A stretch of DNA of 64,000 nucleotides. Source: an uncultured Gammaproteobacteria bacterium. GTDB taxonomy: Bacteria > Patescibacteriota > Microgenomatia > Daviesbacterales > UBA10151. The notes beneath the pieces are model-generated. The model ran no database searches. It saw only the letters and a list, made by a program, of their open reading frames with translations, and was not told the DNA's origin. The position numbers and the translations under genes are program-made. Location: assembly GCA_964547465.1 (NCBI GenBank), contig CAZJNI010000006.1:2505-66504 (forward strand), in the 5' to 3' direction. Each line of letters opens with the position of its first letter. Position 1 is the first letter of the stretch. Of this stretch, positions 4,078 through 63,046 are shown in pieces.

Positions 4078-7000
4078 ATGGGAGAAAAATTAGCTACCGC
4101 AGAACATATTAAACCAATCCGAAAAATGTTTATTGCCCAAAGAGGGGAAATTGCTTTTAGGGCTGCTAGAGCGTGTGCTAAAAAAGGTGTTCCTGCGGTA
4201 ATTCCTTATACTTTTTCCGATTCAAACCCCTTGGCTTCTGAACTTGCTGAAAAGCTTAAAGATAGTGGTTGGGAGCTAGCAGCTTTGGGTGGCACCAGCG
4301 CGAACGAAAACTTTACTAATCCTAGAAACCTGATTCAAACAATGAAGCTTCACGATTGCGATGCAGTCTTTTTAGGTTATGGATTCTTATCTGAAGATTC
4401 TGATTTTGTCAGGATGTGTGAGGAGGAAGGAATAAGGGTACTTGCCCCACCTTCTTCGGTGATGGAAAAAACAGGAAATAAAATAAGTGCCAGGGAAATC
4501 GCTAAAAGAGTTAAAATAGGTTTAAGGTCTTCAATTCCTGTTTTGGAGGGAAGTGAAAATTTACCTAATTTTGAACAAGCACATAGAGCGGCTGACAGAT
4601 TAGGTTATCCTGTTATGCTTAAGGATCCGGATTTAGGTGGAGGCAAGGGGAATATTGTAGCCAGGAATGACAAAGAGTTAGAATCTGCCTACACAAGATT
4701 AAAAAGTAGAAGGGAAAACAAGGAAGTCTTCCTGGAAAGGTATGTTGAGCATGCTGTTCATGTAGAAGTTCAAATTGCGGCTGATAAATATGGAAATATT
4801 GTTTCTCTGGGAGAAAGAGATTGTACCTTGCAAAGAAAATCTCAAAAAGTAATTGAGGAATCTCCGTCACCACATATATCAAATAGAACTAGACAAATTT
4901 TACAATTGGCAGCAACCAGATTTGCTAAAACTGTAGGTTATCAGGGAGTTGGTACTTGGGAGTTTTTGGTAGATTTGGATAGAAAGGGTAGAAACGGTGA
5001 TCCCGCCTGGTATTTTATGGAAATAAATCCAAGAATTCAGGTTGAGCACCCGGTAACAGAAGAACAGACAAGAATTGATATTGTGGATTTAATGATTGAT
5101 ATTGCGGAAGGAAAATCACTTCCCTTTGCTCAAAAAGATATTATTCCACAAGGCCATACAATTGAAGCAAGAGTATATGCAGAAAATCCTAATAGGGGAT
5201 TTACGGAGAGCTTTGGAACCTTAAGTGTTTTAAGCAATCCTGAAGTAGAGGGGGTTAGAATTGAGCCTGCTTTAAGAGAAGGGGATACTCTTTCTTTTTC
5301 GTATGACACTACTCTTTTTAAAGCTATAGCTCATGGTTCTGATAGGGAAACAGCCAGACAAAAATTAGTCAGGCTTCTTTCTGGAAGTGAAATTGTTGGA
5401 GTTTCATCCAATTTACATTTCCTGATCGAACTACTTGCAACTTCCCAGTTTCAAGAAGGAAAAGTAACTACAAGTTTTGTAGAAGACTGGTGGAAAAAAA
5501 GATTAAGAGATAGGGTACACTCAATTGAAGAATTTATAAATGGTGGCACTTTTACAGAATATCCTTTTTCGCAGGAGTATAATCCCGCCTTGTTACCCCA
5601 AACCTCAACCGTTATAAAAAGAGAGGACGGCTCAAAAATAACTTATGCAGATCATTTAGAAAGATTAAGAAGAGAGAAAGGGACAACCTGTGCAGCTAAA
5701 TACGGAATCCAGGAAAGAGATGGAGTCAGATGGGTATTATATACTCTTGACTATAGTATTAATGCGGGTACATTAGGACCTCAAGAGGGAAATATTCTTA
5801 TAGATGCATCGAAATTAGCAAATCAGGAGAATTTAGTTTTAGTAACCCTGATAAGTACAGGTGGAGTTGATAACTGGACTAATGCTTTAGGGTTGCATCA
5901 AATGGGTTTATCAGTTGCGGCTGTAACTGAAAAATACCCTCCCAGAACTCATATAAATGTCAGTCATGGGCCATTTTTTGGTGGAGTTCCAGCTTCTTTT
6001 GCAGGAATACCTGATTGGCAAATTATGGTTGATTCTGAGCAATCGTATGGAGGATTAGCAGGTATATTATTGGTTGCTCGGGGAATGGGAATTAATATAC
6101 CGGAGGGTACCAAAGCGCCTGAGATTTATGAAATATTGACTAAAATGGATGAGAGAAATAAGGCACTTCATACTCCAATTTCCCATTACCAGGCAGGTAA
6201 TGTTGATACCTTAGTCAGTAGTTTGGGAGAAGCATCCAATAGAGTAACCCATTTAATACATAATCTTCATCATAAGGAAGCAATTACCGATCCAAATCGT
6301 GTTTATCAGCCAAATGAACAGATTGCTTTCCTGCAAGGCTCTTCAGAGGCTATAAGGCCTGATAGATCCGGCAGTCATTTTCCTGTCTGGTTTAGTCCTG
6401 TTTCCAGAGTTAGAGAGCAACTTTTGAAGATATCTACCCACTCAGGAAGAGAAGAAGTAAGAGAGCTAACGAATTATGAGAGATGGAAAATAATACATGA
6501 GGTTGATAGACCAACCGCGGCCGATTTATTAGACACCAGATTTGGAATGTTTGATGACAGCACTTTACTAAACGGTCCTATTCTTCATATTGGTAATGAT
6601 GAGTGGTATCCTTCAATAATAGGTGCAGTTTGTAGAATTGAGGATTTGCGTTTGTTAGTGGTAGCCCAGCAAACATCAAGAACTATTGACGAAGTAACTA
6701 AAAAGTTAGGAAAAAAATATGTCGCACAAAAACCTGAGGATTGGGAATCTTTAGAAGATTTCGTATTTGGAATAGGTCTAAAAAACAGATTACCTGTGCT
6801 TTTTATAGGAGATACAGAAGGAGCTAGTGCAGATCCTGATGCAGAGATTAGGGGTCAAATGAGGAAAATAGCCCGTACCCAAAAAATAACCAATAGCTAC
6901 CCTTTCCCCACAGCCGCACTGCTATTGGGATTTGGAGGAAGCGGGGGAGTTGAAACTATATTTAGACCTATGGATGGTGTAGCTGTTGCTGAAAATTCTT

Positions 7001-7326
7001 TATTATTCGTAGCTGATCCCAGACCTAAAAGTTGGATACAGGGGGGACATTGGTTAGATGATACAACAGAAGAGTTTAAAAATTTTATTAACGGCGAAGA
7101 AACAGCAAGGGCTGAAACTTTGGTACAAATGGGGTTAGCTGACTATATAATTAAAGAAGGTCTTGGTGGAGCACATAGAAATTCCAGATTATTCGCCAGG
7201 AATGCCAGAGATTGGGCTTATTCTACTTTTTCACCTCTTTTACCTTTATCTAAAGGTGAACTCACAAATAGAAGATGGGAAAGAAATTTAGCACCTAATC
7301 TTAAATTTAGTACACCTGTATCTTAA
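4078..7326 (+). CDS. Fused acyl-CoA carboxylase: N-terminal biotin carboxylase (ATP-grasp) plus C-terminal carboxyltransferase domains
   Basis: 1082 aa. N-terminus has MFIAQRGEIAFRAARA and MEINPRIQVEHPVTE (biotin carboxylase signature). The C-terminal approx 600 aa are carboxyltransferase-like. No AMKM biotinyl motif inside. Confidence 0.65.
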   Translation: MGEKLATAEHIKPIRKMFIAQRGEIAFRAARACAKKGVPAVIPYTFSDSNPLASELAEKLKDSGWELAALGGTSANENFTNPRNLIQTMKLHDCDAVFLGYGFLSEDSDFVRMCEEEGIRVLAPPSSVMEKTGNKISAREIAKRVKIGLRSSIPVLEGSENLPNFEQAHRAADRLGYPVMLKDPDLGGGKGNIVARNDKELESAYTRLKSRRENKEVFLERYVEHAVHVEVQIAADKYGNIVSLGERDCTLQRKSQKVIEESPSPHISNRTRQILQLAATRFAKTVGYQGVGTWEFLVDLDRKGRNGDPAWYFMEINPRIQVEHPVTEEQTRIDIVDLMIDIAEGKSLPFAQKDIIPQGHTIEARVYAENPNRGFTESFGTLSVLSNPEVEGVRIEPALREGDTLSFSYDTTLFKAIAHGSDRETARQKLVRLLSGSEIVGVSSNLHFLIELLATSQFQEGKVTTSFVEDWWKKRLRDRVHSIEEFINGGTFTEYPFSQEYNPALLPQTSTVIKREDGSKITYADHLERLRREKGTTCAAKYGIQERDGVRWVLYTLDYSINAGTLGPQEGNILIDASKLANQENLVLVTLISTGGVDNWTNALGLHQMGLSVAAVTEKYPPRTHINVSHGPFFGGVPASFAGIPDWQIMVDSEQSYGGLAGILLVARGMGINIPEGTKAPEIYEILTKMDERNKALHTPISHYQAGNVDTLVSSLGEASNRVTHLIHNLHHKEAITDPNRVYQPNEQIAFLQGSSEAIRPDRSGSHFPVWFSPVSRVREQLLKISTHSGREEVRELTNYERWKIIHEVDRPTAADLLDTRFGMFDDSTLLNGPILHIGNDEWYPSIIGAVCRIEDLRLLVVAQQTSRTIDEVTKKLGKKYVAQKPEDWESLEDFVFGIGLKNRLPVLFIGDTEGASADPDAEIRGQMRKIARTQKITNSYPFPTAALLLGFGGSGGVETIFRPMDGVAVAENSLLFVADPRPKSWIQGGHWLDDTTEEFKNFINGEETARAETLVQMGLADYIIKEGLGGAHRNSRLFARNARDWAYSTFSPLLPLSKGELTNRRWERNLAPNLKFSTPVS

Positions 7327-7750: not shown

Positions 7751-9040
7751 ATGAACAAAGTAATACTACATATTGATTTTAATAGCTACTTTGCAACAGT
7801 GGAACAGCAGGCTAATCCCAGGCTTCGGGGTAAACCTGTTGGGGTAACTGGAGGAGATCGTATGAAGCGTACAGTTTTGGGTGCAGCATCAGTTGAAGCT
7901 AAAAAGTTTGGAGTTAAAACAGGCATGCAGATTTGGCAGGCAAAACAGCTTTGTCCTGAAATCATTTTAGTTACTGGGGATTCTGATAAGTATTTAGAGA
8001 CTACCAAGCGTTTTTTGGCTATTTTAAACGGTTACAGCCCATATTTGGAGGTGTTTAGTATAGATGAGGTATTTTTAGAATTACCTCCCCCTGTCATTGC
8101 GAAGCCACGAAGTGGCTGTGGCAATCTTGATTCTTTTAAGAAAGATTCCCACGTCGCTTCGCTCCTCGGAATGACAAAAGAAATTGCCCAAGAGATTAAA
8201 TCCCGTATTAAAGCTGAAATAGGTGAGTGGATTACTTGTTCCATTGGAATTTCTTATAACAAATTAATGGCAAAGTTAGCCGGATCTTTGTACAAACCGG
8301 ATGGATTAGTGATTATTGCAGATGAACAGGCTGCACAGTTTATTTTGGACAGAGTGGGGTTGGATGAAATTTGCGGGATTGGTTCTAGAATTAAAAAAAG
8401 GCTTAATAATATGGGTATTTTTAACTTTTCCCAATTGAGGCAAGTACCCCTCCCGGCTTTACTGGCTTCCTTTAAATCTTATGGCCAAACTCTATATAAC
8501 ATGAGCCGGGGGATAGATAATTCAGAAGTAATACCGTTTTATGAAAAAGAAGAAGTTAAATCAGTTGGCCACAGGCACACTATTGACCATGATACTGCTG
8601 ATCCTGTGGAGATTAAACAGATTCTACTTAAATTAACAGAACTTGTGGCAAGAAGACTGCGGGTCAAAAATTTAGTGGGTAAAACAGTCTCTGTTTGGTT
8701 TAGGTATGCTGACTTTGAAGGTAATGGTATGCAAACAACAATTTCTCCCACCCAGGATGGGCTGGAAATATTTAAAGCTGCCTGGGGAATTTTTCAAAAG
8801 ATATGGGATAGAGGGGAAATAAGGATGATAGGGGTGTCTATTTCTAATTTAGCTTCACAAACTCCGCAAAACTTGTCTTTATTACCAGAATCCAAACAAC
8901 AGGAAACAATTATCCAAACCCTGGACAAAATAAATAATAAATATGGTGAATTTAGTTTGCAAAGAGGAATTTTGTTAGGTTCATCCAAAATGCGCCGGAT
9001 GCCAAATCCTTTCCTTGCAGACAGAAGATTTAAGATTTAA
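7751..9040 (+). CDS. dinB: DNA polymerase IV (Y-family, DinB)
   Basis: N-terminus ILHIDFNSYFATVEQQANPRLRGKPVGV matches DinB ILHVDMDCFFAAVE. 429 aa. Carries an in-frame repeat-element insertion at 8093-8175. Confidence 0.75.
   Translation: MNKVILHIDFNSYFATVEQQANPRLRGKPVGVTGGDRMKRTVLGAASVEAKKFGVKTGMQIWQAKQLCPEIILVTGDSDKYLETTKRFLAILNGYSPYLEVFSIDEVFLELPPPVIAKPRSGCGNLDSFKKDSHVASLLGMTKEIAQEIKSRIKAEIGEWITCSIGISYNKLMAKLAGSLYKPDGLVIIADEQAAQFILDRVGLDEICGIGSRIKKRLNNMGIFNFSQLRQVPLPALLASFKSYGQTLYNMSRGIDNSEVIPFYEKEEVKSVGHRHTIDHDTADPVEIKQILLKLTELVARRLRVKNLVGKTVSVWFRYADFEGNGMQTTISPTQDGLEIFKAAWGIFQKIWDRGEIRMIGVSISNLASQTPQNLSLLPESKQQETIIQTLDKINNKYGEFSLQRGILLGSSKMRRMPNPFLADRRFKI
8093..8175 (+). repeat. RPE-like palindromic element (gtcattgcg...gcaatc family, long form with TIR gtcatt/aatgac) inserted in-frame in dinB
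   Basis: gtcattgcgaagccacgaagtggctgtggcaatc...cgcttcgctcctcggaatgac encodes ...VIAKPRSGCGNLDSFKKDSHVASLLGMT.... Confidence 0.6.
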
Positions 9041-9076
9041 TGTACAATTTATAATGTACAATGTACAATTAAGGAA

Positions 9077-10072
9077 ATGAGAATTTTGGTTACTGGCGGA
9101 GCCGGGTTTTTAGGGTCTCACCTTTGTGACAAGCTGATAGAGATGGGAAACCAGGTAATATGCGTGGATAATTTAATCACTGGTTCTGAAAAAAATATTG
9201 AACATTTAAAAGGTAATCCCAACTTTGAATTTATAAACCAGGATGTAATTCAGCCAATCTCTATAGATAAGATTGCCACTCCCGCACCAGAATCGGTGCG
9301 GGATCGCAATGACGGTGGGGGGGTAATTGATCAGATTTATCATTTAGCCTCTCCTGCCTCGCCTAATAAAAATAATCCCCAAAGCTACATTGCATATCCT
9401 TTTGAAACAATGCAGGTTAATACCACTGGAACATGGAAGTTAGCAGAGGCAGCTACAAAATTGGGCGCTAAATTTTTATTTGCCTCCACATCAGAGGTTT
9501 ATGGGGATCCCAAAGAACACCCGCAAAAAGAAGTCTATAGGGGAAATGTTTCGACAACCGGTCCCAGGGCAGTTTATGATGAAGCCAAAAGATTCGGGGA
9601 AACCATAGTCTCTTCCTTTGTACGCGAGAAAAATCTGGATGGCAGAATAGTTAGGATTTTTAATACATACGGACCAAGAATGGCAGATGATGGCAGGGTG
9701 GTAATTGAGTTTGTAAAAGCAGCTTTAGAAAATAAGCCTTTTCCTGTTTTTGGGGATGGAAAACAGACAAGGTCATTTTGCTACGTATCTGATTTAACAG
9801 ATGGAATTATTGCGGTTATGGAAAAAGGAGTAAGCGGGGAAATATACAATTTAGGAAATCCAGATGAATTCACAGTATTGGAACTGGCAGAAAAGGTTAA
9901 ACAGTTAACTAATTCCGGCTCAAATCCGGAGTTTGTGGAAGAGTTACCAGAAGATGATCCTCTGAAACGTTGTCCTGATATTACAAAAGCAAAAGATGAA
10001 TTAGGCTGGGAGCCAAAAGTAAGCCTGGAGGAAGGTTTAAAATTACTAATTGCTTCTCTCAAAAGGGTATAA
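9077..10072 (+). CDS. NAD-dependent epimerase/dehydratase, UDP-glucuronate decarboxylase (UXS)-like
   Basis: MRILVTGGAGFLGSHLCDKL Rossmann N-terminus and a YxxxK family; UXS-like throughout. An in-frame insertion sits at 9278-9313. Confidence 0.7.
   Translation: MRILVTGGAGFLGSHLCDKLIEMGNQVICVDNLITGSEKNIEHLKGNPNFEFINQDVIQPISIDKIATPAPESVRDRNDGGGVIDQIYHLASPASPNKNNPQSYIAYPFETMQVNTTGTWKLAEAATKLGAKFLFASTSEVYGDPKEHPQKEVYRGNVSTTGPRAVYDEAKRFGETIVSSFVREKNLDGRIVRIFNTYGPRMADDGRVVIEFVKAALENKPFPVFGDGKQTRSFCYVSDLTDGIIAVMEKGVSGEIYNLGNPDEFTVLELAEKVKQLTNSGSNPEFVEELPEDDPLKRCPDITKAKDELGWEPKVSLEEGLKLLIASLKRV
9278..9313 (-). repeat. RPE-like element (gtcattgcg family, reverse orientation) in-frame in the UXS-like gene
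   Basis: The reverse complement of cccgcaccagaatcggtgcgggatcgcaatgac is gtcattgcgatcccgcaccgattctggtgcggg; it encodes the ATPAPESVRDRNDGG insert. Confidence 0.6.
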
Positions 10073-12992: not shown

Positions 12993-13829
12993 ATGAATCA
13001 AGAAGCAGCGCAGGTAACTAAAATAGCTATCTTTCGAAATAGGAAAATAAGGAAAACTATTCATAAAAATGAATGGTGGTTTGTAATTGTTGATGTTGTG
13101 GCTGCTTTAACTGATTCAGTTCAGCCGGATGGCTATATAAAAGATATGCGAAGACGTGATCCGGAACTTTCTAAAGGGTGGGGGCAAATTGCCACCCCCC
13201 TTGCAGTTCAAACATCAGGTGGTAGGCAAAAATTAAATTGTGCCAACACAGAAAGTATATTTAGGATTATCCAATCTATACCTTCTCCTAAAGCAGAGCC
13301 TTTTAAATTATGGTTAGCTAAAGTTGGGTATGAAAGGGTGCAGGAGATAGAAGATCCTGAGTTAGCCCAAAAAAGAGCCAGGGCACTCTACAAGGCAAAA
13401 GGGTATCCCGAGGATTGGATAGAAAGACGAATGCGTTCTATTGCCATTAGGGAAGAATTGACCGATGAGTGGCAAAAACACGGTGTAGAACTGGCAAAAG
13501 AGTATGAAATACTAACTGCCGAGATATCTAAAGCCACTTTTGGTGTTACACCATCTGAATATAAGAAAATAAAAGGACTTAAACGTCAAAATCTGCGTGA
13601 TCATATGAGTGATTTGGAACTTTTGTTTTCCCAACTTGGCGAGGCAGCCACCACAGAAATTACCAAAACAGAACACCCTAGAGGGTTTGAGAGAAATAAA
13701 CAAGTCTCAAAGCGTGGTGGTAAAATTGCCGGAGATGCCAGATCTAATTTAGAGAAGGAAACTGGCAGGAAAGTAATAACTTCACAAAATTATTTGCCGA
13801 AGAAGAGAGGTAAAAGGCTACTAAAATAA
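12993..13829 (+). CDS. Bro-N / KilA-N domain protein (phage-associated antirepressor-like)
   Basis: N-terminus FRNRKIRKTIHKNEWWFVIVDVVAALT matches the Bro-N core (R..DGE.WF.AKDVA.AL). Confidence 0.55.
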   Translation: MNQEAAQVTKIAIFRNRKIRKTIHKNEWWFVIVDVVAALTDSVQPDGYIKDMRRRDPELSKGWGQIATPLAVQTSGGRQKLNCANTESIFRIIQSIPSPKAEPFKLWLAKVGYERVQEIEDPELAQKRARALYKAKGYPEDWIERRMRSIAIREELTDEWQKHGVELAKEYEILTAEISKATFGVTPSEYKKIKGLKRQNLRDHMSDLELLFSQLGEAATTEITKTEHPRGFERNKQVSKRGGKIAGDARSNLEKETGRKVITSQNYLPKKRGKRLLK

Positions 13830-14161: not shown

Positions 14162-15388
14162 ATGAATGATAAAACAGTATATGTACTAGGTGCAGGGTTT
14201 AATCAATTTCTTGAAGATTTTGATGGCACAACACCTCCACTAGCCAGAGATTTCTTTAAAAAAGCCTTTAGTAAACGTAAATTTAATGAGCAAATATATC
14301 TTAACCAAATTAAGGACTTACTGGATTACATAGAACAATATTGGCATCTTGACTTATCAGATCTCAGAAAGGAAGACGTTGATCTTGAAGAAATCTTTAC
14401 CTTAATACAGCTACAAGTTGAAAAGGCAAAGTCAAAAAGAGACTATAAAGAACTAAAAAGACTAATTGAGGTCAGCTTTAAACTTGAGTCTTTCTTTTCA
14501 GAGTTTTTATCAGATTTCGTACCGATAAATCCTCGAAGACCTAGAGGATATTCTTATCTAGTAAAATTCGGAAAATTATTATTGCAGCGTCAACCGACAA
14601 TTATTACTTTCAACTACGATACTTTGCTAGAAGAGGGTATTGCATCAGCTTCTGGGGTTACAAATCCTCCTCCTTCTTACCTAACTTTACATCAAAACAC
14701 TTATAAGAAAAGCGAATTGCCTTCATCTATCCTTAAATATTCACATCATAACTGGAATTCTATACTATCTTATGGTTTCAAATTTGACTATGTTCAACTT
14801 CCTCAGGCTGGCCTAACCCAAATCGTTAGTCTGAAACAATATTATGGTGATCAACTTAACAAGCTTTATAAAATGGAAATATTAAAACTCCACGGTTCCC
14901 TAAACTGGATGGAAGTCGCTGGACCGCTAGACAGGAACGCTTGGAGCAACAAGGACCATTTTAGTTGGAAAGATTTCCCAGCAGAGATTCAAAGGAAACA
15001 AGGAGTTATTTATTATCGTGGACATTGGCATTTCGGTAGCCATCCCTTACTTAGTACGTGGTTTCTGAGACCAAAAATCATTACACCTGTTCTCTATAAA
15101 GACTCCTTTTATAATAGACATCCTTTTCCAGACTTATGGAAGAAAGCTTTGCATGCGCTAAAGCAATGCAAACGTTTAATAATTATTGGATATTCTTTCC
15201 CCCAGACAGATTTCTCCACCAAAATGCTTTTTTTAGAGGCATTTTCAGAGAATTTACTAGAAGAGTTAGTACTGGTAAATCCTGATGAATCTGGTGCTGT
15301 TGGGAAAATAGCCAAAAAATTAACACACTTTTCAAAGCCTATTTTCTACAAATCTGCACAAGACTATATACGAAGTCTGGCGTTGTAA
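14162..15388 (+). CDS. SIR2-like (sirtuin/SIR2_2 family) protein, standalone
   Basis: 408 aa. N-terminal VYVLGAGFNQF glycine loop, catalytic-His motif ILKLHGSLNW (sirtuin LHGS), C-terminal IIIGYSFPQTDF (SIR2_2 iGyS..D block). Confidence 0.6.
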   Translation: MNDKTVYVLGAGFNQFLEDFDGTTPPLARDFFKKAFSKRKFNEQIYLNQIKDLLDYIEQYWHLDLSDLRKEDVDLEEIFTLIQLQVEKAKSKRDYKELKRLIEVSFKLESFFSEFLSDFVPINPRRPRGYSYLVKFGKLLLQRQPTIITFNYDTLLEEGIASASGVTNPPPSYLTLHQNTYKKSELPSSILKYSHHNWNSILSYGFKFDYVQLPQAGLTQIVSLKQYYGDQLNKLYKMEILKLHGSLNWMEVAGPLDRNAWSNKDHFSWKDFPAEIQRKQGVIYYRGHWHFGSHPLLSTWFLRPKIITPVLYKDSFYNRHPFPDLWKKALHALKQCKRLIIIGYSFPQTDFSTKMLFLEAFSENLLEELVLVNPDESGAVGKIAKKLTHFSKPIFYKSAQDYIRSLAL

Positions 15389-16045: not shown

Positions 16046-16058
16046 ACTTTACTGCAAC

Positions 16059-16100
16059 TGCCCCGTCTGGAGCGGGAGATGCAAATTATCCCGAACTCTT
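16059..16100. repeat. Partial copy of the tRNA-Gly(TCC) 3' end + trailer
   Basis: ctgccccgtctggagcggga is identical over 20 nt to 16771-16790, which spans the real tRNA 3' end. Confidence 0.6.
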
Positions 16101-16206: not shown

Positions 16207-16713
16207 ATGAGGGTTAATTACTTAGGAAAGAAAATAAGATTAGCACTTAAGAAAGCATCCACAATTGAAGACGTGCTTGATATTACGAGGCTACTTATAA
16301 CTCAGATTAAAATTGAAGATCCCAAAGCAAAAATTGGCTATGTTTCTGGTAAGGTTACTGCTGATGGAAAAGACAGAATTCCCCATAATCTGAAAAGAAT
16401 GCATAAATTTACGAGAAAACTTAAAGAAATTCACGGAGAACAAATCTTTTCTGCAGCTGATATTTTTAGTGATATCGTCTACTGGAAAATAAATCTTCCT
16501 AGACCAATACACGAAAAGGATTTTTATAATTTTTGGAGAAAAATTGTAAGTAGTGGGGTAACTGATATTTATATGACCCCAGAATGGGAAAGATCTCATG
16601 GAGCTAAAGATGAACATAAGATAGCAAAAACATTAAATATTAATATTCATTATATAGTTTTTGAAGAGACGGGAATCGAACTCCAGATTGAACCTAAAGT
16701 TAGAAGGAGATAG
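16207..16713 (+). CDS. Hypothetical protein (possibly Rossmann-like, nucleoside 2-deoxyribosyltransferase/DUF4406-like)
   Basis: 168 aa; IGYVSGKVTADG and TPEWERSHGAKDE segments. Assignment is weak. Confidence 0.35.
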   Translation: MRVNYLGKKIRLALKKASTIEDVLDITRLLITQIKIEDPKAKIGYVSGKVTADGKDRIPHNLKRMHKFTRKLKEIHGEQIFSAADIFSDIVYWKINLPRPIHEKDFYNFWRKIVSSGVTDIYMTPEWERSHGAKDEHKIAKTLNINIHYIVFEETGIELQIEPKVRRR

Positions 16714-16778
16714 GAGAATTCAATGAAATTAATACTATTTCAGGAAAAATTTGAGGCTAGCTACTTAGCTGCCCCGTC

Positions 16779-16853
16779 TGGAGCGGGATAGGGGAATCGG
16801 ACCCCTTACGTCCACTTTGGAAAAGTGGCATTCTACCGGTGAATTAATCCCGC
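16779..16853 (-). tRNA. tRNA-Gly(TCC), CCA encoded
   Basis: GCGGGAT acceptor, anticodon loop TTTCCAA, T-arm AGGGG-TCCGATT-CCCCT, 3' ATCCCGC-T-CCA. 75 nt. Confidence 0.8.
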
Positions 16854-24841: not shown

Positions 24842-26566
24842 ATGACAGGCAAAATAACTATTTTTCTACTTCTCTTTTTCGTCTTCTCGTTCCTTTTTAG
24901 AACTGACTCCTCATTTGACCAGGATTTGGGAAGACACATAAAGCTGGGAGAAATCATAGTACAAACCCACCAGGTCCCGACAACAAACCTTTTCTCCTAT
25001 ACCAATCCCGATTTTCCTTTCATAAATACCCACTGGCTGTTTGAGGTATTTGTGTATCTTTGGAGCACATCCCTGGGTTTGCAGTCCTTACTTATTTTCA
25101 AAATTATTATTTTTTTGTTATCAGTCTGGCTGATCTTTAAGATAGTTCCTAAAGATAGGAGAGTTTTACTGCTACCAATAGGTTTTATTTTTCTGCATGT
25201 TCTAAGGGAAAGACTGGAGCTTAGACCGGAAATTTTCAGCTTCCTGTTCACAGCCAGTACCTATTATATTCTTGAAACGTACACATCGTCATTGCGGGCC
25301 CCGAAGGGGCGTGGCAATCTAATCTTTCTATTACCCCTTATCCAACTCATTTGGGTAAACACCCATATTTATTTTTTTGTGGGGTTAACCCTACAAGCTA
25401 TTTTTCTGATCCATTTATTATTTGAAAGAACAGGTGCCAAGCTAGTCCACCCTCCAGGTGGATTACGTTGGCACCTACTCTTAATCACTCTGTCTTTATC
25501 CATTCTGTTAAGTTTTCTAAACCCGAATGGTTTATCTGGGATTTTATACCCTCTTAATGTTACTAAAAATTATGGCTATACAATTGTTGAAAATCAAACC
25601 ATGTTTTTACTGGAAAATATTGGCTTTAGAGATCCTAACTTTTTATTTGTTAAATTATCGGCAACAATTATTGCGATCGCTTTTTTTGTTACCTTTATTA
25701 AAAAGCGGGTAGATTTAAAAAATATACTGGTACCACTTACCGGCCTTGGTTTGGCTTTACTTAATGTCAGAAGCTTCCCTTATCTGGTTTTTTTATCTCT
25801 ACCGGCTGTTCTGCAAAATCTTGGTCCGCTTAAAAGAAATCTCGTTACTAGTCTTTTGTTTTTAGTCTTTAGTTTTATGTTACTTTTGGAATCTTATTTC
25901 TACCTCAACGGGGATTACTACCGTTTTTCTGATCAGCTTGTTCAGCCAAAACTTGTACTTTTGGAAAGCGGCAAAAAGGCTATGGATTTTGTACTGGCCA
26001 AAGATTTGCCCCAGCCAATTTTTAATAATTTTGATATTGGCAGCTATATTTTATATCGGGGCTATCCAAAATATAAAGTTTTCGTGGATGGCAGGCCGGA
26101 AGCCTATCCGGCTCAATTTTTCACCGGGATTTATATTCCGGGCCAATCAGATTATGCTAATTTTAAGCAGTTAGAGGAACTTTATAAGTTCAAAACAATT
26201 ATTTTTTCCCATACAGACCAGACTCCTTGGGCCAAGACATTTTTACAATCTGTAGTTAAAGATCCGGATTGGAAAATAGTTTATATAGATAATTTCATGA
26301 TTATTTTGGTGAGGGAAGAGGTTGCAAATCAAAAGCAATTACCAGCTATAGATTTATCCAAGCTTAATCCATCTACTTACCAATTTGATAACCATCTTTC
26401 CTATCTTAGATTGGGTATTTTCCTTTTAAGTACAGATCGTGGGATGACCCAACAAAATACAGAATCCGGAAAACAGTTTATTCAAAAAGCCCTGCAGCTT
26501 TTCCCGAATGACCCGATCGCAAATTCATTCTATGGTCAAACTTCCAAAAATCCCTTTTTCTGGTAA
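24842..26566 (+). CDS. Large polytopic membrane protein (possible GT-C-type glycosyltransferase)
   Basis: 574 aa, more than 10 hydrophobic segments and a C-terminal soluble domain; in-frame repeat insertion at 25288-25319. Confidence 0.4.
   Translation: MTGKITIFLLLFFVFSFLFRTDSSFDQDLGRHIKLGEIIVQTHQVPTTNLFSYTNPDFPFINTHWLFEVFVYLWSTSLGLQSLLIFKIIIFLLSVWLIFKIVPKDRRVLLLPIGFIFLHVLRERLELRPEIFSFLFTASTYYILETYTSSLRAPKGRGNLIFLLPLIQLIWVNTHIYFFVGLTLQAIFLIHLLFERTGAKLVHPPGGLRWHLLLITLSLSILLSFLNPNGLSGILYPLNVTKNYGYTIVENQTMFLLENIGFRDPNFLFVKLSATIIAIAFFVTFIKKRVDLKNILVPLTGLGLALLNVRSFPYLVFLSLPAVLQNLGPLKRNLVTSLLFLVFSFMLLLESYFYLNGDYYRFSDQLVQPKLVLLESGKKAMDFVLAKDLPQPIFNNFDIGSYILYRGYPKYKVFVDGRPEAYPAQFFTGIYIPGQSDYANFKQLEELYKFKTIIFSHTDQTPWAKTFLQSVVKDPDWKIVYIDNFMIILVREEVANQKQLPAIDLSKLNPSTYQFDNHLSYLRLGIFLLSTDRGMTQQNTESGKQFIQKALQLFPNDPIANSFYGQTSKNPFFW
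25288..25319 (+). repeat. RPE-like element (gtcattgcg family, short form) in-frame in the membrane-protein gene
   Basis: gtcattgcgggccccgaaggggcgtggcaatc; encodes SSLRAPKGRGNL. Confidence 0.55.
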
Positions 26567-29270: not shown

Positions 29271-31094
29271 ATGAAAAATATAAGCACGACTCCGCGAGTA
29301 AGAAATGTTGCAATAATTGCCCATGTTGATCATGGTAAAACCACTCTGGTAGATGCCATGCTTAGGCAAACTATGGTCAAAATCTCCAAAGAAACAGCTG
29401 AAAAGGGAGATTTAATCATGGATTCAAATGACCTGGAGCGGGAAAGAGGGATTACAATTTTTTCCAAAAATGCTTCTGTTCATTACAAAGATACCAAAAT
29501 AAATATCATAGATACCCCGGGCCATGCTGATTTTGGAGGGGAAGTTGAAAGGGTTTTAAAAATGGCAGATGGGGCGCTACTTTTAATTGATGCCAAAGAA
29601 GGACCAATGCCTCAAACCAGGTTTGTTTTGAAAAAAGCTTTGGAACTCGGTCATAAAGTCATTGTTGTTATAAACAAAATAGATAAGAAAGATGCCAGGA
29701 TTGAATATGTGATTAATAAAACCTTTGATTTATTTTTGGAGCTGGGTGCAGATGAAGAAACTGCTTACTTTCCTACCATTTATGCCTCCGGAAAGCAGGG
29801 AAAAGCAGGATTGGCAGCTGATCTTTCTAAAATGAGCGATATTTCCCCGGTTTTTGATGCTATTTTAAAATATATACCGGCTCCTTTGGCAGAAGATGAT
29901 AAACCGCTGCAAATTCTAATCACTAATACAGCCTATGATAATTTTAAAGGCCGGATGGCCACAGGTAGGGTTTATGCCGGAGTAGTTAAAGCAAGTCAAG
30001 AAATAGCCCATATTAACCGTGAAGGGGAGATAAAAAAATTCAAACTGACTTCCCTGATGGGATTTGAGGGACTTGAAAGAGTGGATATTGCGGAGGCTCA
30101 TGCCGGGGATATTATTGCTCTTTCAGGTATTCCGGATATAACTATTGGGGAAACAATTGCAGATCCGGGGAGCCCTGTTGCCTTACCTGTTCTGGAAATT
30201 GAGCCATCTACAGTCAGGATGAGGTTTGGAGTTAATTCTTCACCCCTTGCAGGCCGTGAGGGAGAGTTTAAAACAGCCAGACAAATTCAGGAAAGATTAC
30301 TTAAGGCGGCTGAATCTGACGTGGCGCTAAAAGTAGAATCCACAGGTAGCGAATGGATTGTGTCAGGCAGGGGTGAGCTCCATTTAGCCATACTTATTGA
30401 GACAATGCGGAGAGAAGGATATGAGTTCCAGGTAGGTAAACCACAGGTTATTGAAAAAATCGAAAACGGGAAAACGCTGACTCCGGTTGAAAAGCTGGCT
30501 TTAGAGGTACCGGAGGAGTTTTCAGGTTCAGTTATGCAGAAAATGGGGTTAAGGCATGGGGAACTGATAGATATGACAACTGACTCGCCTCGCTCCGCGG
30601 GCGGAGCGGGAAATAATATAGTTTATATGGAATTTATTATTGCCACTAAAGAGCTTTTTGGTTATAGATCTCAATTTATAACAGATACCAAAGGCTTGGG
30701 GATTATTTCTTCTTCTTTCTTAGAATATAGACTGGATTCCGGGGGAAGTTTTAAAAGAAATAACGGCTCTCTGGTAGTACATGAATCAGGCTCAACAAAG
30801 CTATATGCCCTAACAGGTGCACAGGATCGGGGGACACTTTTTGTAGGAGCCGGACTGGAGGTTTATAAAGGCCAGGTAATTGGACGAAACAGCAGAGAAG
30901 ATGATATCTGGATAAATGTTTGCAAAGAAAAACAACAGACAAATCACAGATCATCCGGTGAGGGCACTGCAGAGCATTTTAATAGTCCAAAATTGATGAG
31001 CCTGGAAAATGCCATTGAATATATTGATGACAGTGAGTTAGTAGAGGTTACTCCCAAAAATATCAGAATCCGCAAGATAGATTTGGCAGCCTAA
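29271..31094 (+). CDS. typA: Translational GTPase TypA/BipA
   Basis: NVAIIAHVDHGKTTLVDAML, DTPGHADF and NKIDK; EF-G-like domain order; 607 aa. Confidence 0.85.
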   Translation: MKNISTTPRVRNVAIIAHVDHGKTTLVDAMLRQTMVKISKETAEKGDLIMDSNDLERERGITIFSKNASVHYKDTKINIIDTPGHADFGGEVERVLKMADGALLLIDAKEGPMPQTRFVLKKALELGHKVIVVINKIDKKDARIEYVINKTFDLFLELGADEETAYFPTIYASGKQGKAGLAADLSKMSDISPVFDAILKYIPAPLAEDDKPLQILITNTAYDNFKGRMATGRVYAGVVKASQEIAHINREGEIKKFKLTSLMGFEGLERVDIAEAHAGDIIALSGIPDITIGETIADPGSPVALPVLEIEPSTVRMRFGVNSSPLAGREGEFKTARQIQERLLKAAESDVALKVESTGSEWIVSGRGELHLAILIETMRREGYEFQVGKPQVIEKIENGKTLTPVEKLALEVPEEFSGSVMQKMGLRHGELIDMTTDSPRSAGGAGNNIVYMEFIIATKELFGYRSQFITDTKGLGIISSSFLEYRLDSGGSFKRNNGSLVVHESGSTKLYALTGAQDRGTLFVGAGLEVYKGQVIGRNSREDDIWINVCKEKQQTNHRSSGEGTAEHFNSPKLMSLENAIEYIDDSELVEVTPKNIRIRKIDLAA

Positions 31095-31559: not shown

Positions 31560-32033
31560 ATGGCTGACACAGAAAGATTACCACTTTATACTCCCGGAAG
31601 TATTACCTGGGAAGAATATAATGAAGGCGGGAGAAATGAACAAATTTATGAACTTAATTTTATAGTACAAAAAGTAGCGGAAAAATATGGCTTGTATTTT
31701 AGAACAGTTGCAGCTTTGCATCTTGTAGATAATATACCAATCGATCACCTAAATCCTTTATTAAGCTCATTTGAAAATCTTAGGCGGTACAAGAAAAAGA
31801 ATGAATCAACAGAGGAAATAATTTATCAAGATCAAGTTTCACTTCAGGCTGTAACTGAAGTATACAGATTTTTAGATGGAGATATTGTTAAATTAAGAAC
31901 TACTACTAGCAGAGTTAAAAAGCAAGCAGAAAATACTGAACTAAGAAAAGGCTTGTATAATGACCTTTTAGCTAAAGTTGTTTTAGTAAATAACGTAATC
32001 ACAGATTCCACCCCTGGGGTGGAAATAGGATGA
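31560..32033 (+). CDS. Hypothetical protein
   Basis: 157-aa ORF. Confidence 0.35.
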   Translation: MADTERLPLYTPGSITWEEYNEGGRNEQIYELNFIVQKVAEKYGLYFRTVAALHLVDNIPIDHLNPLLSSFENLRRYKKKNESTEEIIYQDQVSLQAVTEVYRFLDGDIVKLRTTTSRVKKQAENTELRKGLYNDLLAKVVLVNNVITDSTPGVEIG

Positions 32034-32066
32034 CACCTCGGGATTTTTGACTCTTTTTGTGCCTAG

Positions 32067-40564: not shown

Positions 40565-41833
40565 ATGAGATTACTTGCTGCACTGGCGTTGGGTAAAAGT
40601 ATTTCCTGGTTTATTAAATTATTTAAAATAGGTGGAGCCTCTGCAGCTCCCGGGCTTTATGCTCTAAAGTTAGATCCTGACTTAGTTAAGAAATTAAGTT
40701 CTAAAATACCTAAAAATATAATAATAACCGGTACAAATGGTAAAACAACAACTGCCAGGTTACTGGCACATTTTGCAAAGGCATCTGGCCTTAAAGTTAT
40801 CAGAAACCATACCGGTTCAAATCTGGAACGCGGCATTGCCTCAACTCTTGTCAAGGTCGGACCTTGGTTAAGGTCCGACCTTGGTATTTGGGAACTGGAT
40901 GAGGCTGCTTTTAATACAGTAGCACCAAAAATAAACCCAGATATAGTGGTTTTTTTAAATGTATTCAGAGATCAGCTGGATAGATATGGTGAGATAGATT
41001 CTGTTGTTAAGGGCTGGTCTAACACCCTGAAATCCCTAAATCCCAAAACTATAGTACTGGTTAATGGTGATGATGCAAATTGCACAAAATTAAAATCAGC
41101 ATTTAAAGGAAAAGTCTATCAATTTGGGGTTAAGGATTACAAAATCCTGGGTGAATCTATTACTCATATAAAAGAATCAGAAAACCTAGATTATGAAGCA
41201 AAAAATGTGAAGCCTAATGGTTTAGAAGGCTCTAGTTTCCGGTTATCAGTTACAAGTTATCAGTTATCAGTCAATCTTCCTCTTCCCGGCATTTATCATA
41301 TTTATGATGCGCTGGCTGCTATTGCATGTGCTTCTTTGCTGAATTTTCCAATCCGCCGACTCACCAACACGCTGAAACACTTTACACCTGCTTTTGGAAG
41401 AGTTGAAAAATTGCCATTTGGATATATTTTTCTTATTAAAAATCCGGCAGGAGCAACACAGGTTTTTCAAACAATAGCACCTCAGATTAAAAAAGAAGAC
41501 AGGTTGCTTCTGGCTCTAAACGATAATTTGGCAGATGGCACAGATGTTTCCTGGATCTGGGACGCTGATTTTGAAAAGCTATCAGTTACAAGTTATCAGT
41601 TATCAGTTACTTGTTCCGGTACCAGAGCTCATGATTTAGCAAATAGATTAAAATATGCAGGCTTTAATCCTAAACAAATAAAGGTCATACCCGAGTTGGA
41701 AAATGCCCTTAAAGAGGCTAAAAAGGGTCTAAAAGGCACTCTTTTTATCCTACCCACATATACTGCCATGCTTGAGTTACAAGGCATACTAACAAAGATG
41801 GGTATTAAGAAAAATTACTGGGAGGAAATTTAA
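40565..41833 (+). CDS. murT: Mur-ligase-family lipid II isoglutaminyl synthase subunit MurT
   Basis: IIITGTNGKTTTARLLAHF (Mur ligase P-loop) plus C-terminal DUF1727-like region; immediately followed by the gatD-like GATase. Confidence 0.65.
   Translation: MRLLAALALGKSISWFIKLFKIGGASAAPGLYALKLDPDLVKKLSSKIPKNIIITGTNGKTTTARLLAHFAKASGLKVIRNHTGSNLERGIASTLVKVGPWLRSDLGIWELDEAAFNTVAPKINPDIVVFLNVFRDQLDRYGEIDSVVKGWSNTLKSLNPKTIVLVNGDDANCTKLKSAFKGKVYQFGVKDYKILGESITHIKESENLDYEAKNVKPNGLEGSSFRLSVTSYQLSVNLPLPGIYHIYDALAAIACASLLNFPIRRLTNTLKHFTPAFGRVEKLPFGYIFLIKNPAGATQVFQTIAPQIKKEDRLLLALNDNLADGTDVSWIWDADFEKLSVTSYQLSVTCSGTRAHDLANRLKYAGFNPKQIKVIPELENALKEAKKGLKGTLFILPTYTAMLELQGILTKMGIKKNYWEEI
40852..40884. repeat. 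Palindromic element (aaggtcggacctt family) in-frame in murT
   Basis: caaggtcggaccttggttaaggtccgaccttgg; encodes KVGPWLRSDLG. Confidence 0.5.
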
Positions 41834-52093: not shown

Positions 52094-53680
52094 CTAAAAT
52101 CTCAACCACTCCAAAATGATTTGAAGAAGACCACGATTAGTACTCACTCCTTGAGTACTGCCGCATTGACAGCTTGAACCATTCCAGGAACAACCAGATG
52201 TTTGAGCGCAAGCAGTGGCAGGATCCTGTGTAGAGGTAGTACTTCCTTGAGAAGTTTGAGTTTCTGTTGAGCTGGTGGTCGGCTGGGGAGTACTACCAGT
52301 CGATGTAGAACCGGAAGACTGACACTGACAATTACAGAAATCTCCATTCCAACTGCAAGTTCCCCCGCAAGACCTACATCCTGACTCCTGGTTCTCTCGA
52401 GTCATATTGGATGGAGCAGAGGTTGATGCCGGATAAGGTGTGGTCGTTGCGGTAGAACCAGAGCCTGAAGTTGAAGTACTGCCACCTGAAGTATAACCCT
52501 GACAATTACAGTATCCGCTGCTCCAATTACAAGTTCCACCTCCTGCTCTGCAACCTGCCTCTTGAGTCTCACGACTCCCGTAATAAGGAGTAGAATAGGG
52601 AGATGCCGAATAACCGGGTTGATATCCGCCAGTTGACGTTCCATCAGATGTATTCGAAGGCCTGCATCTATCCGGATTTTGCCTGCAGTATTCTTCAAAC
52701 TGTTTTCTTTGTTCCTCACTTCCAAAGCTGGCCGCTTGACCAGGTTGGCATTTATCTGGATTAGCTTGACAATAGCTGGCATATTCAGAAGCTTTTCGAG
52801 CGGATTCCTCTGTTTCACCATAAAATCCGCAATGACAGGTATTTTCTTTCCAGGCACAATTGGGGGTCTTATTACACATTTCTTGAGGATTATATCCTGG
52901 AGGCGGTGATCCACCTGGTCCTACGAAACCTCTTCTACATTGATCCTCATTTTCCTGACAATAAGTTCTACAAGAGGCTTCACTATTACAGCCACCAGGA
53001 CCGGTAAATGTGCCTCCGGATGTAGAGCTAAACCCGGAACAAACTGAATAGTTATTAGGATCCGAACAAAATGCCTTACAGGTAGCCTCGGAAGTACATC
53101 CACCAGGGCCAACTTGCTGCTGTCCTCCGTGTAAACCTACGGTCTTGGCGAATTCCGAACACTTTTGTCTGTTTTCTTCTTTTGAACAAAGCGATTGACA
53201 GCCAGCAGTTGAATCACAACCCAGCACTTCTTTAGCTCTGGTAATTACTTGGGTTCTGCTTAGATCTTCCACCTGTCCGCCAACCAAACCCTGACTCTTT
53301 GCAAAGGAATCACATTTATCGTGATTGGCCGAAACTTCGCAGAAGTTAAGACATGATGCTTTGGAATCACACCCTAATAGCTTTTTAGCTGCTTGTAAAA
53401 CCCTATCATTTACCTCAAACTTATCTTCTTGATAAAAACCTTTCTGCTTGGCATAGTTAATACAGCTTGTGGCATTGAGTGGATCTTCACAAAAACTGCG
53501 ACAGGCTGAATAATCTGCACATCCGCCCAACTGCGCAATTGGGTAGCTAACTCCATATTTTTCAGCCGCACCTTCAGTACTCTCTTGAGCATGAGTAGTG
53601 GTAGCCATTATGAAGGAAGCTACCAAAGCTACCAGAAATCCTATCCAGGCTGTTTTTTGTGTTGTTAAAAATTTAATCAT
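52094..53680 (-). CDS. Secreted cysteine-rich repeat protein with Ser/Thr-rich C-terminus
   Basis: Signal peptide; about 8 repeats of a C-x-C-x-C module (GCDSxAxCxxFC...KC..FA); S/T/G-rich tail. Confidence 0.5.
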   Translation of the reverse strand: MIKFLTTQKTAWIGFLVALVASFIMATTTHAQESTEGAAEKYGVSYPIAQLGGCADYSACRSFCEDPLNATSCINYAKQKGFYQEDKFEVNDRVLQAAKKLLGCDSKASCLNFCEVSANHDKCDSFAKSQGLVGGQVEDLSRTQVITRAKEVLGCDSTAGCQSLCSKEENRQKCSEFAKTVGLHGGQQQVGPGGCTSEATCKAFCSDPNNYSVCSGFSSTSGGTFTGPGGCNSEASCRTYCQENEDQCRRGFVGPGGSPPPGYNPQEMCNKTPNCAWKENTCHCGFYGETEESARKASEYASYCQANPDKCQPGQAASFGSEEQRKQFEEYCRQNPDRCRPSNTSDGTSTGGYQPGYSASPYSTPYYGSRETQEAGCRAGGGTCNWSSGYCNCQGYTSGGSTSTSGSGSTATTTPYPASTSAPSNMTRENQESGCRSCGGTCSWNGDFCNCQCQSSGSTSTGSTPQPTTSSTETQTSQGSTTSTQDPATACAQTSGCSWNGSSCQCGSTQGVSTNRGLLQIILEWLRF

Positions 53681-55839: not shown

Positions 55840-56730
55840 TCAGATAACACTTAATCCTGCTATATAAATTTCAGCTCTTTTTCCTTTTCCAAGAATTGAA
55901 AATGCAACTACCCTTAAAATAAGCCCTAAAATTAAAAATATTTTAACCGGTAAATAAAAAATAGGGTAGTGTTTTTGAAGATAATATTTAACTCCTTTTA
56001 ATTCATTTAGAAAGGAGGAGCTTAAATCAAAATTAGTGGAAGCGCCATGAAGGTGGATAACCTCAATTTGAGGCACATACCAAACTTTAAAACCGCTATC
56101 AGAAATTCTTTTACACCACTCAATTTCTTCCATATGCATAAATAAATTCTCATCAAAGCCTGTTGTTTTATCAAAAATTTCTTTCTTAAAAGCAAAGAAT
56201 GCTCCCATAACCCAACCTACTTCGTGGGCTTTAGAAAAAAAACTCTTATTTTTAGGATGAAAGGCTGGGGACAAGAAACCTAAACCCAAAATCCAAAAAA
56301 TAATATTAAACGGATTAGGTAGGTTACCTGCTGATGGCTGCAGCTTACCCGTGACATAATTTAATCTTGCCCCCAACAAATCACAGTTTTTATTAACCCG
56401 AAAGTAAGCTAAAGCTTTATATAAAGATTCTTCCGGAAGATAAACATCTGAATTTAAAAGCAAAATATATGGATATTTAGATTGTTTCATAGCTATGTTG
56501 TTGCCTTTGGAAAAACCGGTGTTTTCCTTAGATGCAATGAGTTTCACCCAGGGGAAATCTTGTCTTATCATCCCCAAAGAGCCATCAGATGAGGCATTAT
56601 CCAAGACAATCACCTCAATTTTATTCCCCATTTTTTTCTCACAATAATCTTTAGCTAACTTCAGTTTTTCCAAACATCTTTTAGTAATATCTTTTGTGTT
56701 GTAGCTTAAAATAATTATCGAGAGATCCAA
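55840..56730 (-). CDS. GT2-family glycosyltransferase
   Basis: IIILSYNTKD...VIVLDNASSDGS. Confidence 0.7.
   Translation of the reverse strand: MDLSIIILSYNTKDITKRCLEKLKLAKDYCEKKMGNKIEVIVLDNASSDGSLGMIRQDFPWVKLIASKENTGFSKGNNIAMKQSKYPYILLLNSDVYLPEESLYKALAYFRVNKNCDLLGARLNYVTGKLQPSAGNLPNPFNIIFWILGLGFLSPAFHPKNKSFFSKAHEVGWVMGAFFAFKKEIFDKTTGFDENLFMHMEEIEWCKRISDSGFKVWYVPQIEVIHLHGASTNFDLSSSFLNELKGVKYYLQKHYPIFYLPVKIFLILGLILRVVAFSILGKGKRAEIYIAGLSVI

Positions 56731-60991: not shown

Positions 60992-63046
<2,055 letters not shown>

Follow-up and report, generated by a model that had tools for sequence, protein, structure and literature searches.

The window examined here, 64 kb of one genome on contig CAZJNI010000006.1, contains eight short palindromic repeat units of a single family at six loci, with about one expected by chance: two units lie in dinB, one each in a UXS-like gene, a membrane protein gene, a GT2 glycosyltransferase gene and atpG, and two in the spacer between atpG and atpD. 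The G+C content of the window is about 38 %. Its proteins were nearest to those of Candidatus Daviesbacteria and of Microgenomates, with an identity of 75-80 % for DinB, and the host is a Daviesbacteria-like groundwater bacterium of the candidate phyla radiation with a tiny genome. Loci of relatives are numbered with an L (L001 and following) and orthologous proteins with a P (P0151 and others). A preliminary description of the window had reported a repeat family inserted in frame into housekeeping genes. The recurrence was confirmed and all five loci named there were present, the unit in the UXS-like gene being slightly longer (9269-9313 instead of 9278-9313). The list was incomplete, as the unit in the GT2 gene (57417-57449) had been missed. 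The elements of about 80 bp in dinB and in the atpG/atpD spacer, taken before as single entities, are inverted dimers, each composed of two units of 24-45 bp.

The units follow a general plan: an unpaired GTC tag, a stem beginning with AT, a GC-rich hairpin and a 3-nt tail. The tag was CGTC in five units and TGTC in three; all eight stems opened with AT (ATT or ATC) and closed with AAT or GAT. Six units have a long form of 31-45 nt, (C/T)GTC-ATTGC-GA-variable GC hairpin-GYG-GCAAT-CTT, which folds into a 5-bp outer stem (ATTGC/GCAAT), an asymmetric internal loop with GA on the 5' side opposite GYG on the 3' side, an inner hairpin of variable sequence and the tail CTT. Two units (U5, U6) have a short form with a CGTC or TGTC tag, an 8-bp stem, a loop of 4 or 5 nt and a CCA tail. 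Units occur singly or as inverted pairs with the tags pointing outward; the window has two such dimers, and others with this layout were seen in L002, L127, L144 and L150.

Within dinB (7751-9040, plus strand), the long unit U1 (GTCATTGCGAAGCCACGAAGTGGCTGTGGCAATCTT, 8093-8128, plus strand) encodes VIAKPRSGCGNL. Its inverted partner U2 is a long unit of the C variant (GTCATTCCGAGGAGCGAAGCGACGTGGGAATCTT, 8142-8175, minus strand) with a GCGAAGC mini-hairpin; it encodes DSHVASLLGMT, and the tags of the pair are outermost. The UXS-like gene (9077-10072, plus strand) contains the long unit U3 (9269-9313, minus strand) with an inner stem of 10 bp. U4 (GTCATTGCGGGCCCCGAAGGGGCGTGGCAATCTA, 25288-25321, plus strand) is a long unit inside the open reading frame (ORF) 24842-26566, which codes for a membrane protein without a Pfam match, and encodes SSLRAPKGRGNL. 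The long unit U8 (GTCATTGCGAGGAGTCTTCGACGAAGCAATCTT, 57417-57449, plus strand) is located in the GT2 glycosyltransferase gene (56715-57626, minus strand) and encodes KIASSKTPRND. In the atpG/atpD spacer, the canonical short unit U5 (C-GTC-ATTCCCGC-GAAG-GCGGGAAT-CCA, 63077-63103, plus strand) with an 8-bp stem and a 4-nt loop is followed by its inverted partner U6 (T-GTC-ATCCCGTA-CTTGA-TACGGGAT-CCA, 63118-63145, minus strand) with an 8-bp stem and a 5-nt loop, again with outward tags. The long unit U7 (63833-63871, plus strand) encodes KIATPANGRTRND at a position of atpG (63152-63991, minus strand, running off the window) that we call site A. A possible ninth unit, GTCATCCTATTTCCACCCCAGGGGTGGAATC (32006-32036, minus strand), lies at the end of ORF 31560-32033 beside a tRNA-Gln gene. 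Its tag is GTCATCC and its 8-bp hairpin ends in AATC, but the outer stem is unpaired; it may be a degenerate unit.

The pattern GTCATYSC-N8-36-GSRATC was matched nine times in the window, with 0.07 matches expected. A definition by structure alone, in which GTC is followed by a stem of 5 bp or more that opens with AT and then by C, gave ten matches, with 1.13 expected. A few matches were set aside. The pattern match at 52803-52836 has an AT-rich interior without a hairpin and is probably due to chance, and the pattern match at 4664-4671, without a GC hairpin, was also regarded as chance, as were both extra structural matches (14098 and 55519), which are AT-rich and without GC hairpin. A covariance model trained on 61 units from other phyla and the six long units of the window assigned 52.2 bits to U1, 50.4 to U2, 46.6 to U4, 43.7 to U3, 39.6 to U7 and 37.3 to U8, in total a range of 37-52 bits, and only 10 bits to the next match in the window; the scan found no long units there beyond these six. 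The short units were not recognised by this model, and the two forms were catalogued separately. The hairpins seen in the preliminary description were borne out by folding as DNA: seven of nine units, the possible ninth included, folded clearly better than shuffled sequences, with z-scores from -2.3 to -5.6 (U1 -3.7 at -8.4 kcal/mol, U3 -5.6, U5 -4.3, U6 -4.4, U7 -4.5). A comparison with Rfam at gathering thresholds recovered 13 tRNAs in the window and no known RNA family over the elements.

All six genic units (two in dinB, one each in the genes for the UXS-like protein, the membrane protein, GT2 and AtpG) kept the reading frame within long ORFs, so that the frame preservation described before holds for each of them. 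Comparison with homologues identified the encoded segments as inserts, and distant solved homologues (human UXS1, 7yll, E. coli BipA and 2qe7_D) do not have the peptides. In the UXS-like protein, 19 amino acids between two well-aligned blocks are absent from human UXS1; U3 belongs to this insert of 17-19 amino acids, KIATPAPESVRDRNDGGGV. The gene has a 51-nt gap relative to the orthologue in L001, and the neighbouring UXS genes of L001-L003 are shorter by 12-17 amino acids. Residues 112-142 of DinB were unaligned to 7yll, the best solved homologue, and are absent from many orthologues. The AlphaFold model of DinB places residues 112-132 as coil with a predicted local distance difference test (pLDDT) score of about 49-64 between a strand (106-111) and a helix (133-157), thus the insert looks like a surface loop in the model, a low-confidence coil in agreement with the surface location proposed earlier. 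At site A of AtpG, the allele of the window is 33 nt longer than empty alleles. The loop of the membrane protein comprises 46 amino acids compared to a modal length of 40, and the GT2 domain around U8 is about 12 amino acids longer than the Pfam profile. With units read in either orientation and in several frames, the encoded peptides are unrelated (VIAKPRSGCGNL, SSLRAPKGRGNL, KIATPANGRTRND, DSHVASLLGMT), which indicates that the conserved object is the nucleic acid and not the peptide.

The inserts are polymorphic among relatives, an expectation already raised with the first description. In an alignment of the DinB protein of the window with 120 orthologues (69-80 % identical to it), 49 of the 121 sequences had at least five extra residues in the loop after the motif FLEL, and the peptides differed, among them VIARSETTKQS..DCH..LAMT, VIPAKAGIQ..LDPRICGDD and LRGEP... 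A second DinB loop, empty in the window, was filled in 50 orthologues. For AtpG, 80 metagenome loci were compared. Site A was filled in the window, in L124, L125, L128, L145 and L154, and by a dimer in L158/L159, while most others were empty; at site B most members of the clade carried a differing unit, dimer or nested combination. When both sites were masked for a neighbour-joining tree, alleles with site A filled were interleaved with empty ones inside the shallow clade of the window, and L145 was located elsewhere; in this tree without support values, the scattered filled state is suggestive. Further copies, likewise anticipated, were frequent: besides the additional unit in the window, 456 kb of Daviesbacteria DNA contained 52 strict units, 43 of them within ORFs of at least 100 amino acids, and many loci were without any unit. 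A sample of about 30 kb from the 1.02-Mb Daviesbacteria contig Ga0209514_10000005 likewise had none.

Copies were also observed at non-orthologous positions. The 31-nt core of U8, located in the GT2 gene of the window, is identical to the unit at site A of atpG in L124 and L154. A short heterodimer, GTCATCCCGYACTTGATRCGGGATC plus GTCATTCCYGCGAARGCRGGAATC, occupies the atpG-atpD spacer in the window, the spacer separating the genes for subunits c and b in L144, and the atpA-atpG spacer in L150, in all three genomes about 10 nt past a TGA stop codon. A long dimer akin to that of dinB is intergenic in L127. The dinB dimer is identical in 82 of 83 positions between the window and L001, with the dinB genes being 76 % identical, and the site-A inserts of L124, L145 and L154 are 90-92 % identical to one another at an atpG identity of 57-68 %. 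Next to the dinB insert, the flanks were also raised (38 of 42 and 22 of 24 positions identical between window and L001, about 80 % further out), whereas the flanks of AtpG site A were, unlike the insert, not conserved above gene level. Recombination may therefore contribute to the pattern without explaining the whole of it.

The units share their host genes with other palindromic elements. A second family, defined by the pattern CACCTCSGAGGTG and missing from the preliminary description, had eight matches in the window with 0.37 expected, including two pairs 36 bp apart. One element of this family (62628-62676), inside atpD (61362-62786, minus strand), encodes an 18-amino-acid insert in the N-terminal beta-barrel, at which 2qe7_D has a gap of exactly 18 residues. 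Another (CACCTCCGAGGTG, 23 nt, CACCTCGGAGGTA; 63418-63466) occupies site B of atpG, where it encodes the 14-amino-acid insert YLRGESGQKTGSHLGG and folds with a z-score of -5.1. Directly beside it, a GTC-tagged unit has left a remnant of its 5' part (GTCATCCCTGACGCC, tag GTCATCCC, 63467-63481, minus strand), which encodes VIPDA; orthologues have, at this codon, intact units beginning with SVIP or SVIA. A family-2 element stands behind a remnant of a CGTC unit in L127 and L154 as well, and family-2 peptides (HLRGE..HLGG, TSH..TSEVG) fill the second DinB loop in orthologues. The palindrome in typA (CCTCGCTCCGCGGGCGGAGCGGG, 30586-30611) had been considered a relative of the GTC-tagged units. It encodes an 8-amino-acid insert, SPRSAGGA, relative to E. 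coli BipA, and is repeated: in P0185, which is orthologous to the product of ORF 24842-26566, the same peptide, DSPRSAGGAG, is nested within another palindromic element of the loop. The typA palindrome, however, has neither a GTC tag nor an ATTGC stem and belongs to a different family. Orthologues of the same ORF (P0151, P0153, P0185, P0186 and others) contain a third family of inserts with QMSHDRGTFV-like peptides, for which the DNA CAAATGTCACATGAC...GGGACATTTG, deduced from the peptide alone, also contains GTCA/TGAC. The modal loop of this membrane protein, YLRGPTKL, may be a decayed GTC-tagged unit. A further GC palindrome, GGGTGGGGGCAAATTGCCACCCCCC, was noticed at 13176-13200 inside an ORF with a Bro-N domain. 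A hairpin in the murT gene (40852-40883, CAAGGTCGGACCT TGGTTA AGGTCCGACCTTG) has a perfect 13-bp stem in frame; it adds no length relative to MurT of S. aureus and was not counted as insert.

The long form extends far beyond the host group. Its conserved ends are GTCATTGCGAG and CGYGGCAATCTT. A scan for GTCATTGCGA-N10-34-GGCAATCTT covered one genome per species, and we estimate about 27 chance matches in the whole collection. The scan located at least 120 loci in well over a dozen phyla. Among the matches listed were Rickettsia tamurae, a metagenome-assembled genome (MAG) of the Rickettsiales, Saccharibacteria, Berkelbacteria, Shapirobacteria and Daviesbacteria, as well as Bacteroidota, Chloroflexota, Planctomycetota, Bacillota, Nitrospirota, Elusimicrobia and spirochaetes. 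Fifty-eight putative viral stretches (IMG/VR contigs L204-L261) also carry GTCATTGCGA..GGCAATCTT, for which the chance estimate is a few. The 115 unique units among the matches listed had 115 different inner segments, and 101 of them folded better than versions with shuffled inner segments, which is the unbiased structural figure. The inner loops of these units were mostly triloops, 24 of the type GNA, and GCGNAGC mini-hairpins were frequent. GNA triloops and d(GCGNAGC) mini-hairpins are unusually stable in DNA, thus their frequency makes a DNA form plausible. In an alignment of 67 sequences, composed of the six long units of the window and a hand-chosen 61 of the 115 unique units from the scan, all six base pairs of the inner helix changed on both sides, with 128 such cells compared to 41.5 in shuffled alignments. 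The covariation score was 0.377 versus at most 0.09 in slid registers; the outer stem was invariant. A subfamily GAGGA-GCGNAGC-GACG varies in the middle loop base and exchanges C-G for T-A or G-C for A-T around an invariant G..A, a pattern typical of the very stable d(GCGNAGC) mini-hairpin of DNA. The CTT tail is kept across phyla. Hence, the long variant is pan-bacterial, with conserved ends and a covarying inner helix. The combination of a conserved tag, outer stem and internal loop with a covarying hairpin suggests that a folded strand, probably of DNA, is recognised.

We propose, as the account with the best support, that the elements are non-autonomous hairpin repeats which are still gained, lost or overwritten. 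Folded single-stranded DNA would be the form in which copies spread, both inside a genome and from one genome to another. An enzyme acting in trans would handle them and recognise them by tag, outer stem and internal loop, with the single-stranded hairpin handling of the REPIN/RAYT type as working analogy. We regard such a route, single-stranded DNA with a trans-acting enzyme, as possible rather than probable. Selection may purge insertions that break the frame or the fold; the survivors would be in-frame copies in tolerant surface loops and copies in spacers just past stop codons. The predicted peptides would be by-products, since several frames and both orientations are in use. That the long form is the substrate of an unrecognised, very widespread enzyme processing single-stranded DNA, and that this enzyme still moves or rewrites the hairpins, is a speculative and rather doubtful extension. 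A GIY-YIG nuclease was considered as mobiliser and rejected: the genes sit between tRNA fragments rather than beside units, and none is in the window. Such genes were seen near the dinB-UXS pair in L001 (15516-15767) and L002 (12524-12787), coding for 83-87 amino acids.

Several points weigh against this account or limit it. Among the ORFs of at least 100 amino acids in the window, none codes for a transposase, integrase or HUH-nuclease domain, the Y1 transposase domain included, and the literature reports no mobilising enzyme for CGTC repeats (PMC3733652). A clean junction between empty and filled alleles or a target-site duplication was not seen, and no direct repeat flanks any unit. Filled alleles at AtpG site A replace about 12 nt rather than purely adding sequence, and they share orientation, frame and the flanking LLGG, so that one old insertion followed by losses would look alike. 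U2 and U8 folded no better than shuffled sequences under standard parameters. The percentage of paired cells is inflated by the hand-made choice of the covariation set, and the copy number per genome is an extrapolation from 64 kb of the host genome.

A rival reading takes the inserts as fossils without present mobility, one ancient insertion per loop, in which the differences arose by divergence in place with compensatory changes, by hairpin-driven deletions and by small duplications. The filled alleles at AtpG site A and at the first DinB site agree in orientation, frame and boundary codon, and the modal loop YLRGPTKL of the membrane protein resembles a decayed unit. The same option was weighed for RPE-4, -6 and -7, palindromic elements of Rickettsia (PMC3767692), and Di Nocera et al. 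suggested that CGTC repeats may have lost their transposase (PMC3733652). However, an old neutral insert should diverge at least as much as its gene, yet the inserts were 90-99 % identical in genes of 57-76 % identity. With identical units in unrelated genes, one heterodimer at three non-orthologous spacers, and filled and empty alleles interleaved in a shallow clade, we consider a purely fossil origin unlikely. Homologous recombination instead of transposition would patch insert-bearing alleles in via the flanking gene, and gene conversion or template switching would overwrite resident units. This would account for differing units at exactly one codon, and it agrees with the similarity of the dinB insert and its immediate flanks between window and L001, higher than in the remaining gene, and with the flank CTGCTGGGTGGAAA common to the filled site-A alleles. 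Against it stand the site-A flanks, which are no more conserved than the gene although the insert is; moreover, recombination cannot put one unit or dimer at non-orthologous sites and cannot account for a family common to many phyla. Conserved ends of 11-12 nt are short for a RecA-type exchange. As the main route of spread, recombination appears improbable. A homing-like co-conversion of flanks was suggestive at dinB and absent at AtpG site A, and was kept only as a rival.

A host function would make the units hairpins in RNA that stabilise or pace mRNA, sites of DNA-handling proteins, or useful peptide loops. The intergenic dimers about 10 nt past the TGA stop in three genomes are in the classic place of REP-type stabilisers, the insert sequence was more conserved than the host gene, and the internal loop was kept across phyla. 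But close relatives dispensed with the insert at every site examined, the peptides are unrelated and read in both orientations and several frames, the DinB insert was modelled as low-confidence coil, and the element load ranged from zero to many among related loci; we judge a host function to be quite unlikely. Chance similarity or an artefact of metagenome assembly has a practically negligible probability. The window does derive from a metagenome assembly, and one of the nine pattern matches looks like chance, but nine matches were found versus 0.07 expected and ten versus 1.13, the inserts recur in independent assemblies of other samples, a sequencing read is longer than a unit, and the frames are intact.

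Other features of the window lie outside the repeats. About 20 nt, CTGCCCCGTCTGGAGCGGGA, are directly repeated at 16052-16083 and 16764-16795. The repeat reaches into the 3' end of tRNA-Gly(tcc) (16779-16853, minus strand) and brackets ORF 16207-16713 (DUF4406); ORFs with Bro-N (12993-13829) and SIR2_2 (14162-15388) domains are located just upstream. This may be a small integrated element or a defence islet at the tRNA gene. Between atpC (58333-58773, minus strand) and atpD (61362-62786, minus strand), about 2.6 kb are occupied by oppositely oriented genes (Pro_CA_2, AHSA1 and unknowns), thus the atp operon is interrupted. At 4078-7326, a fusion protein of 1082 amino acids combines a biotin carboxylase with a carboxyltransferase-like domain; the gene adjoins a biotin ligase and a FabH-like gene, which is unusual in a reduced genome.

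Palindromic inserts in reading frames have long been viewed as a curiosity of Rickettsia, and the question how CGTC-type repeats are mobilised dates from at least 2013. Here, the same superfamily is abundant in essential genes of a bacterium of the candidate phyla radiation, and its long form combines ends kept across many phyla with a covarying hairpin. This makes a compact system for asking what moves such elements, as the genomes measure about 1 Mb and public metagenomes offer many variants of the populations. In these genomes, odd GC-rich peptides and length differences, e.g., VIARSE.., SLRG.., ..PRND, ..LAMT and HLRGE...HLGG, have to be seen as repeat insertions rather than new domains; such inserts can mislead annotation, alignment and phylogeny. 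If an active enzyme exists, its activity would be a main source of loop-length variation in essential proteins such as the ATP synthase beta and gamma subunits, TypA and DinB in the genomes of about 1 Mb of the candidate phyla radiation, and small gene sets together with element-rich and element-poor genomes would allow finding the enzyme by phylogenetic profiling.

Among known systems, integron attC sites were rejected: the ends GTCATTGCGAG and CGYGGCAATCTT are not RYYYAAC/GTTRRRY boxes, and there is no cassette context. The preliminary description had compared the repeats to selfish elements of the type of MITEs (miniature inverted-repeat transposable elements). Palindromic repeats colonising ORFs in frame were found, but an identity as MITEs was not supported: the dimers have inverted ends, and neither a target-site duplication nor a cognate transposase or insertion sequence was seen. 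In the year 2000, Ogata et al. reportedly described RPE-1, a Rickettsia palindromic element (RPE) of 100-150 bp that lies in frame in many ORFs and is tolerated in surface loops. The units of the window resemble RPE-1 as in-frame palindromic inserts tolerated in surface loops; they differ in sequence, RPE-1 having almost no ATGAC. GTAG repetitive extragenic palindromes (REPs) and the REPIN-RAYT system (Nunvar 2010; Bertels and Rainey 2011) share with our elements the short tagged hairpin, the inverted doublet as mobile unit and a hairpin recognised by its structure. The tag here is (C/T)GTC and not GTAG, no RAYT or IS200-like gene was found in the window, and REPINs are, unlike the elements here, almost wholly extragenic.

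The closest likeness is to the CGTC-tagged REPs. These have an unpaired CGTC tag (often TGTC or CCTC), an 8-9-bp stem that opens with A and T, a 4-5-nt loop and a 3-nt tail near CCA, occur mostly as inverted dimers without a dedicated transposase, and in some cases lie within genes, in particular those for replication and repair (PMC3733652). R. conorii RPE-6 and Neisseria dRS3 were placed in the group CGTC-1 and RPE-4 in CGTC-4, and intragenic CGTC-1/RPE-6 units encode VIPAKAGI, SIPAKAGIQTGPSMDSRLRGNA / DSRLRGN- (PMC3733652). The units described here share with CGTC-1 the tag, the AT-initial stem, the 8-bp stem, 4-nt loop and CCA tail of U5, the inverted dimers with outward tags, the genic copies including those in replication and repair genes, and, as far as the window shows, the lack of an associated transposase; Daviesbacteria orthologues encode VIPAKAGIQ...LDPRLRGDD and DSRLRGND. 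U5 and U6 agree with the definition of CGTC REPs in every feature, including the stem and loop dimensions, whereas the six long units fall outside these dimensions. REPs are mostly extragenic, in contrast to the predominantly genic copies here (43 of 52 in relatives), and the CGTC REP survey did not cover the candidate phyla radiation, the group of this host (PMC3733652). The elements therefore very probably belong to the (C/T)GTC-tagged REP superfamily, which contains RPE-4, -6 and -7 and dRS3, as true inserts that are repeated and polymorphic, and for the long units the best assignment is to a long, undescribed form of it.

The proposed resemblance to RPEs held up in the superfamily membership, the ATGAC motif and the in-frame loop inserts. 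ATGAC, the reverse complement of GTCAT, typifies RPE-4, -6 and -7, while RPE-1, -2, -3 and -5 together have 0.1 per kb; orthologues in Rickettsia carry differing RPE groups at one site, for which a hot spot or a common origin was left undecided (PMC3767692). GTCAT is present in every unit of the window. In-frame inserts at exposed sites and differing elements at one site are further likenesses to RPE-4 and RPE-7 (PMC3767692), and the long variant itself occurs in R. tamurae and the Rickettsiales MAG. Annotated RPEs, compared here by description, have 68-192 bp and were deemed specific for Rickettsia, in contrast to units of 24-45 bp in an unrelated phylum, to which a name as Rickettsia elements would not apply in the literal sense. 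Because the CGTC REP definition, whose superfamily holds RPE-4 and RPE-6, and the ATGAC motif of RPE-4, -6 and -7 both apply, a kinship with RPEs rather than a mere analogy is supported. Literature searches for the sequences, the peptides and REPs or RPEs in Patescibacteria, incomplete in coverage and thus an absence of evidence only, returned no account from the candidate phyla radiation. Elements of this kind and their habit of inserting in frame are already known; new are the host group, in which the repeats are apparently undescribed, the long form with ends spanning phyla, a second family resident beside the first, and the density of units within essential genes.

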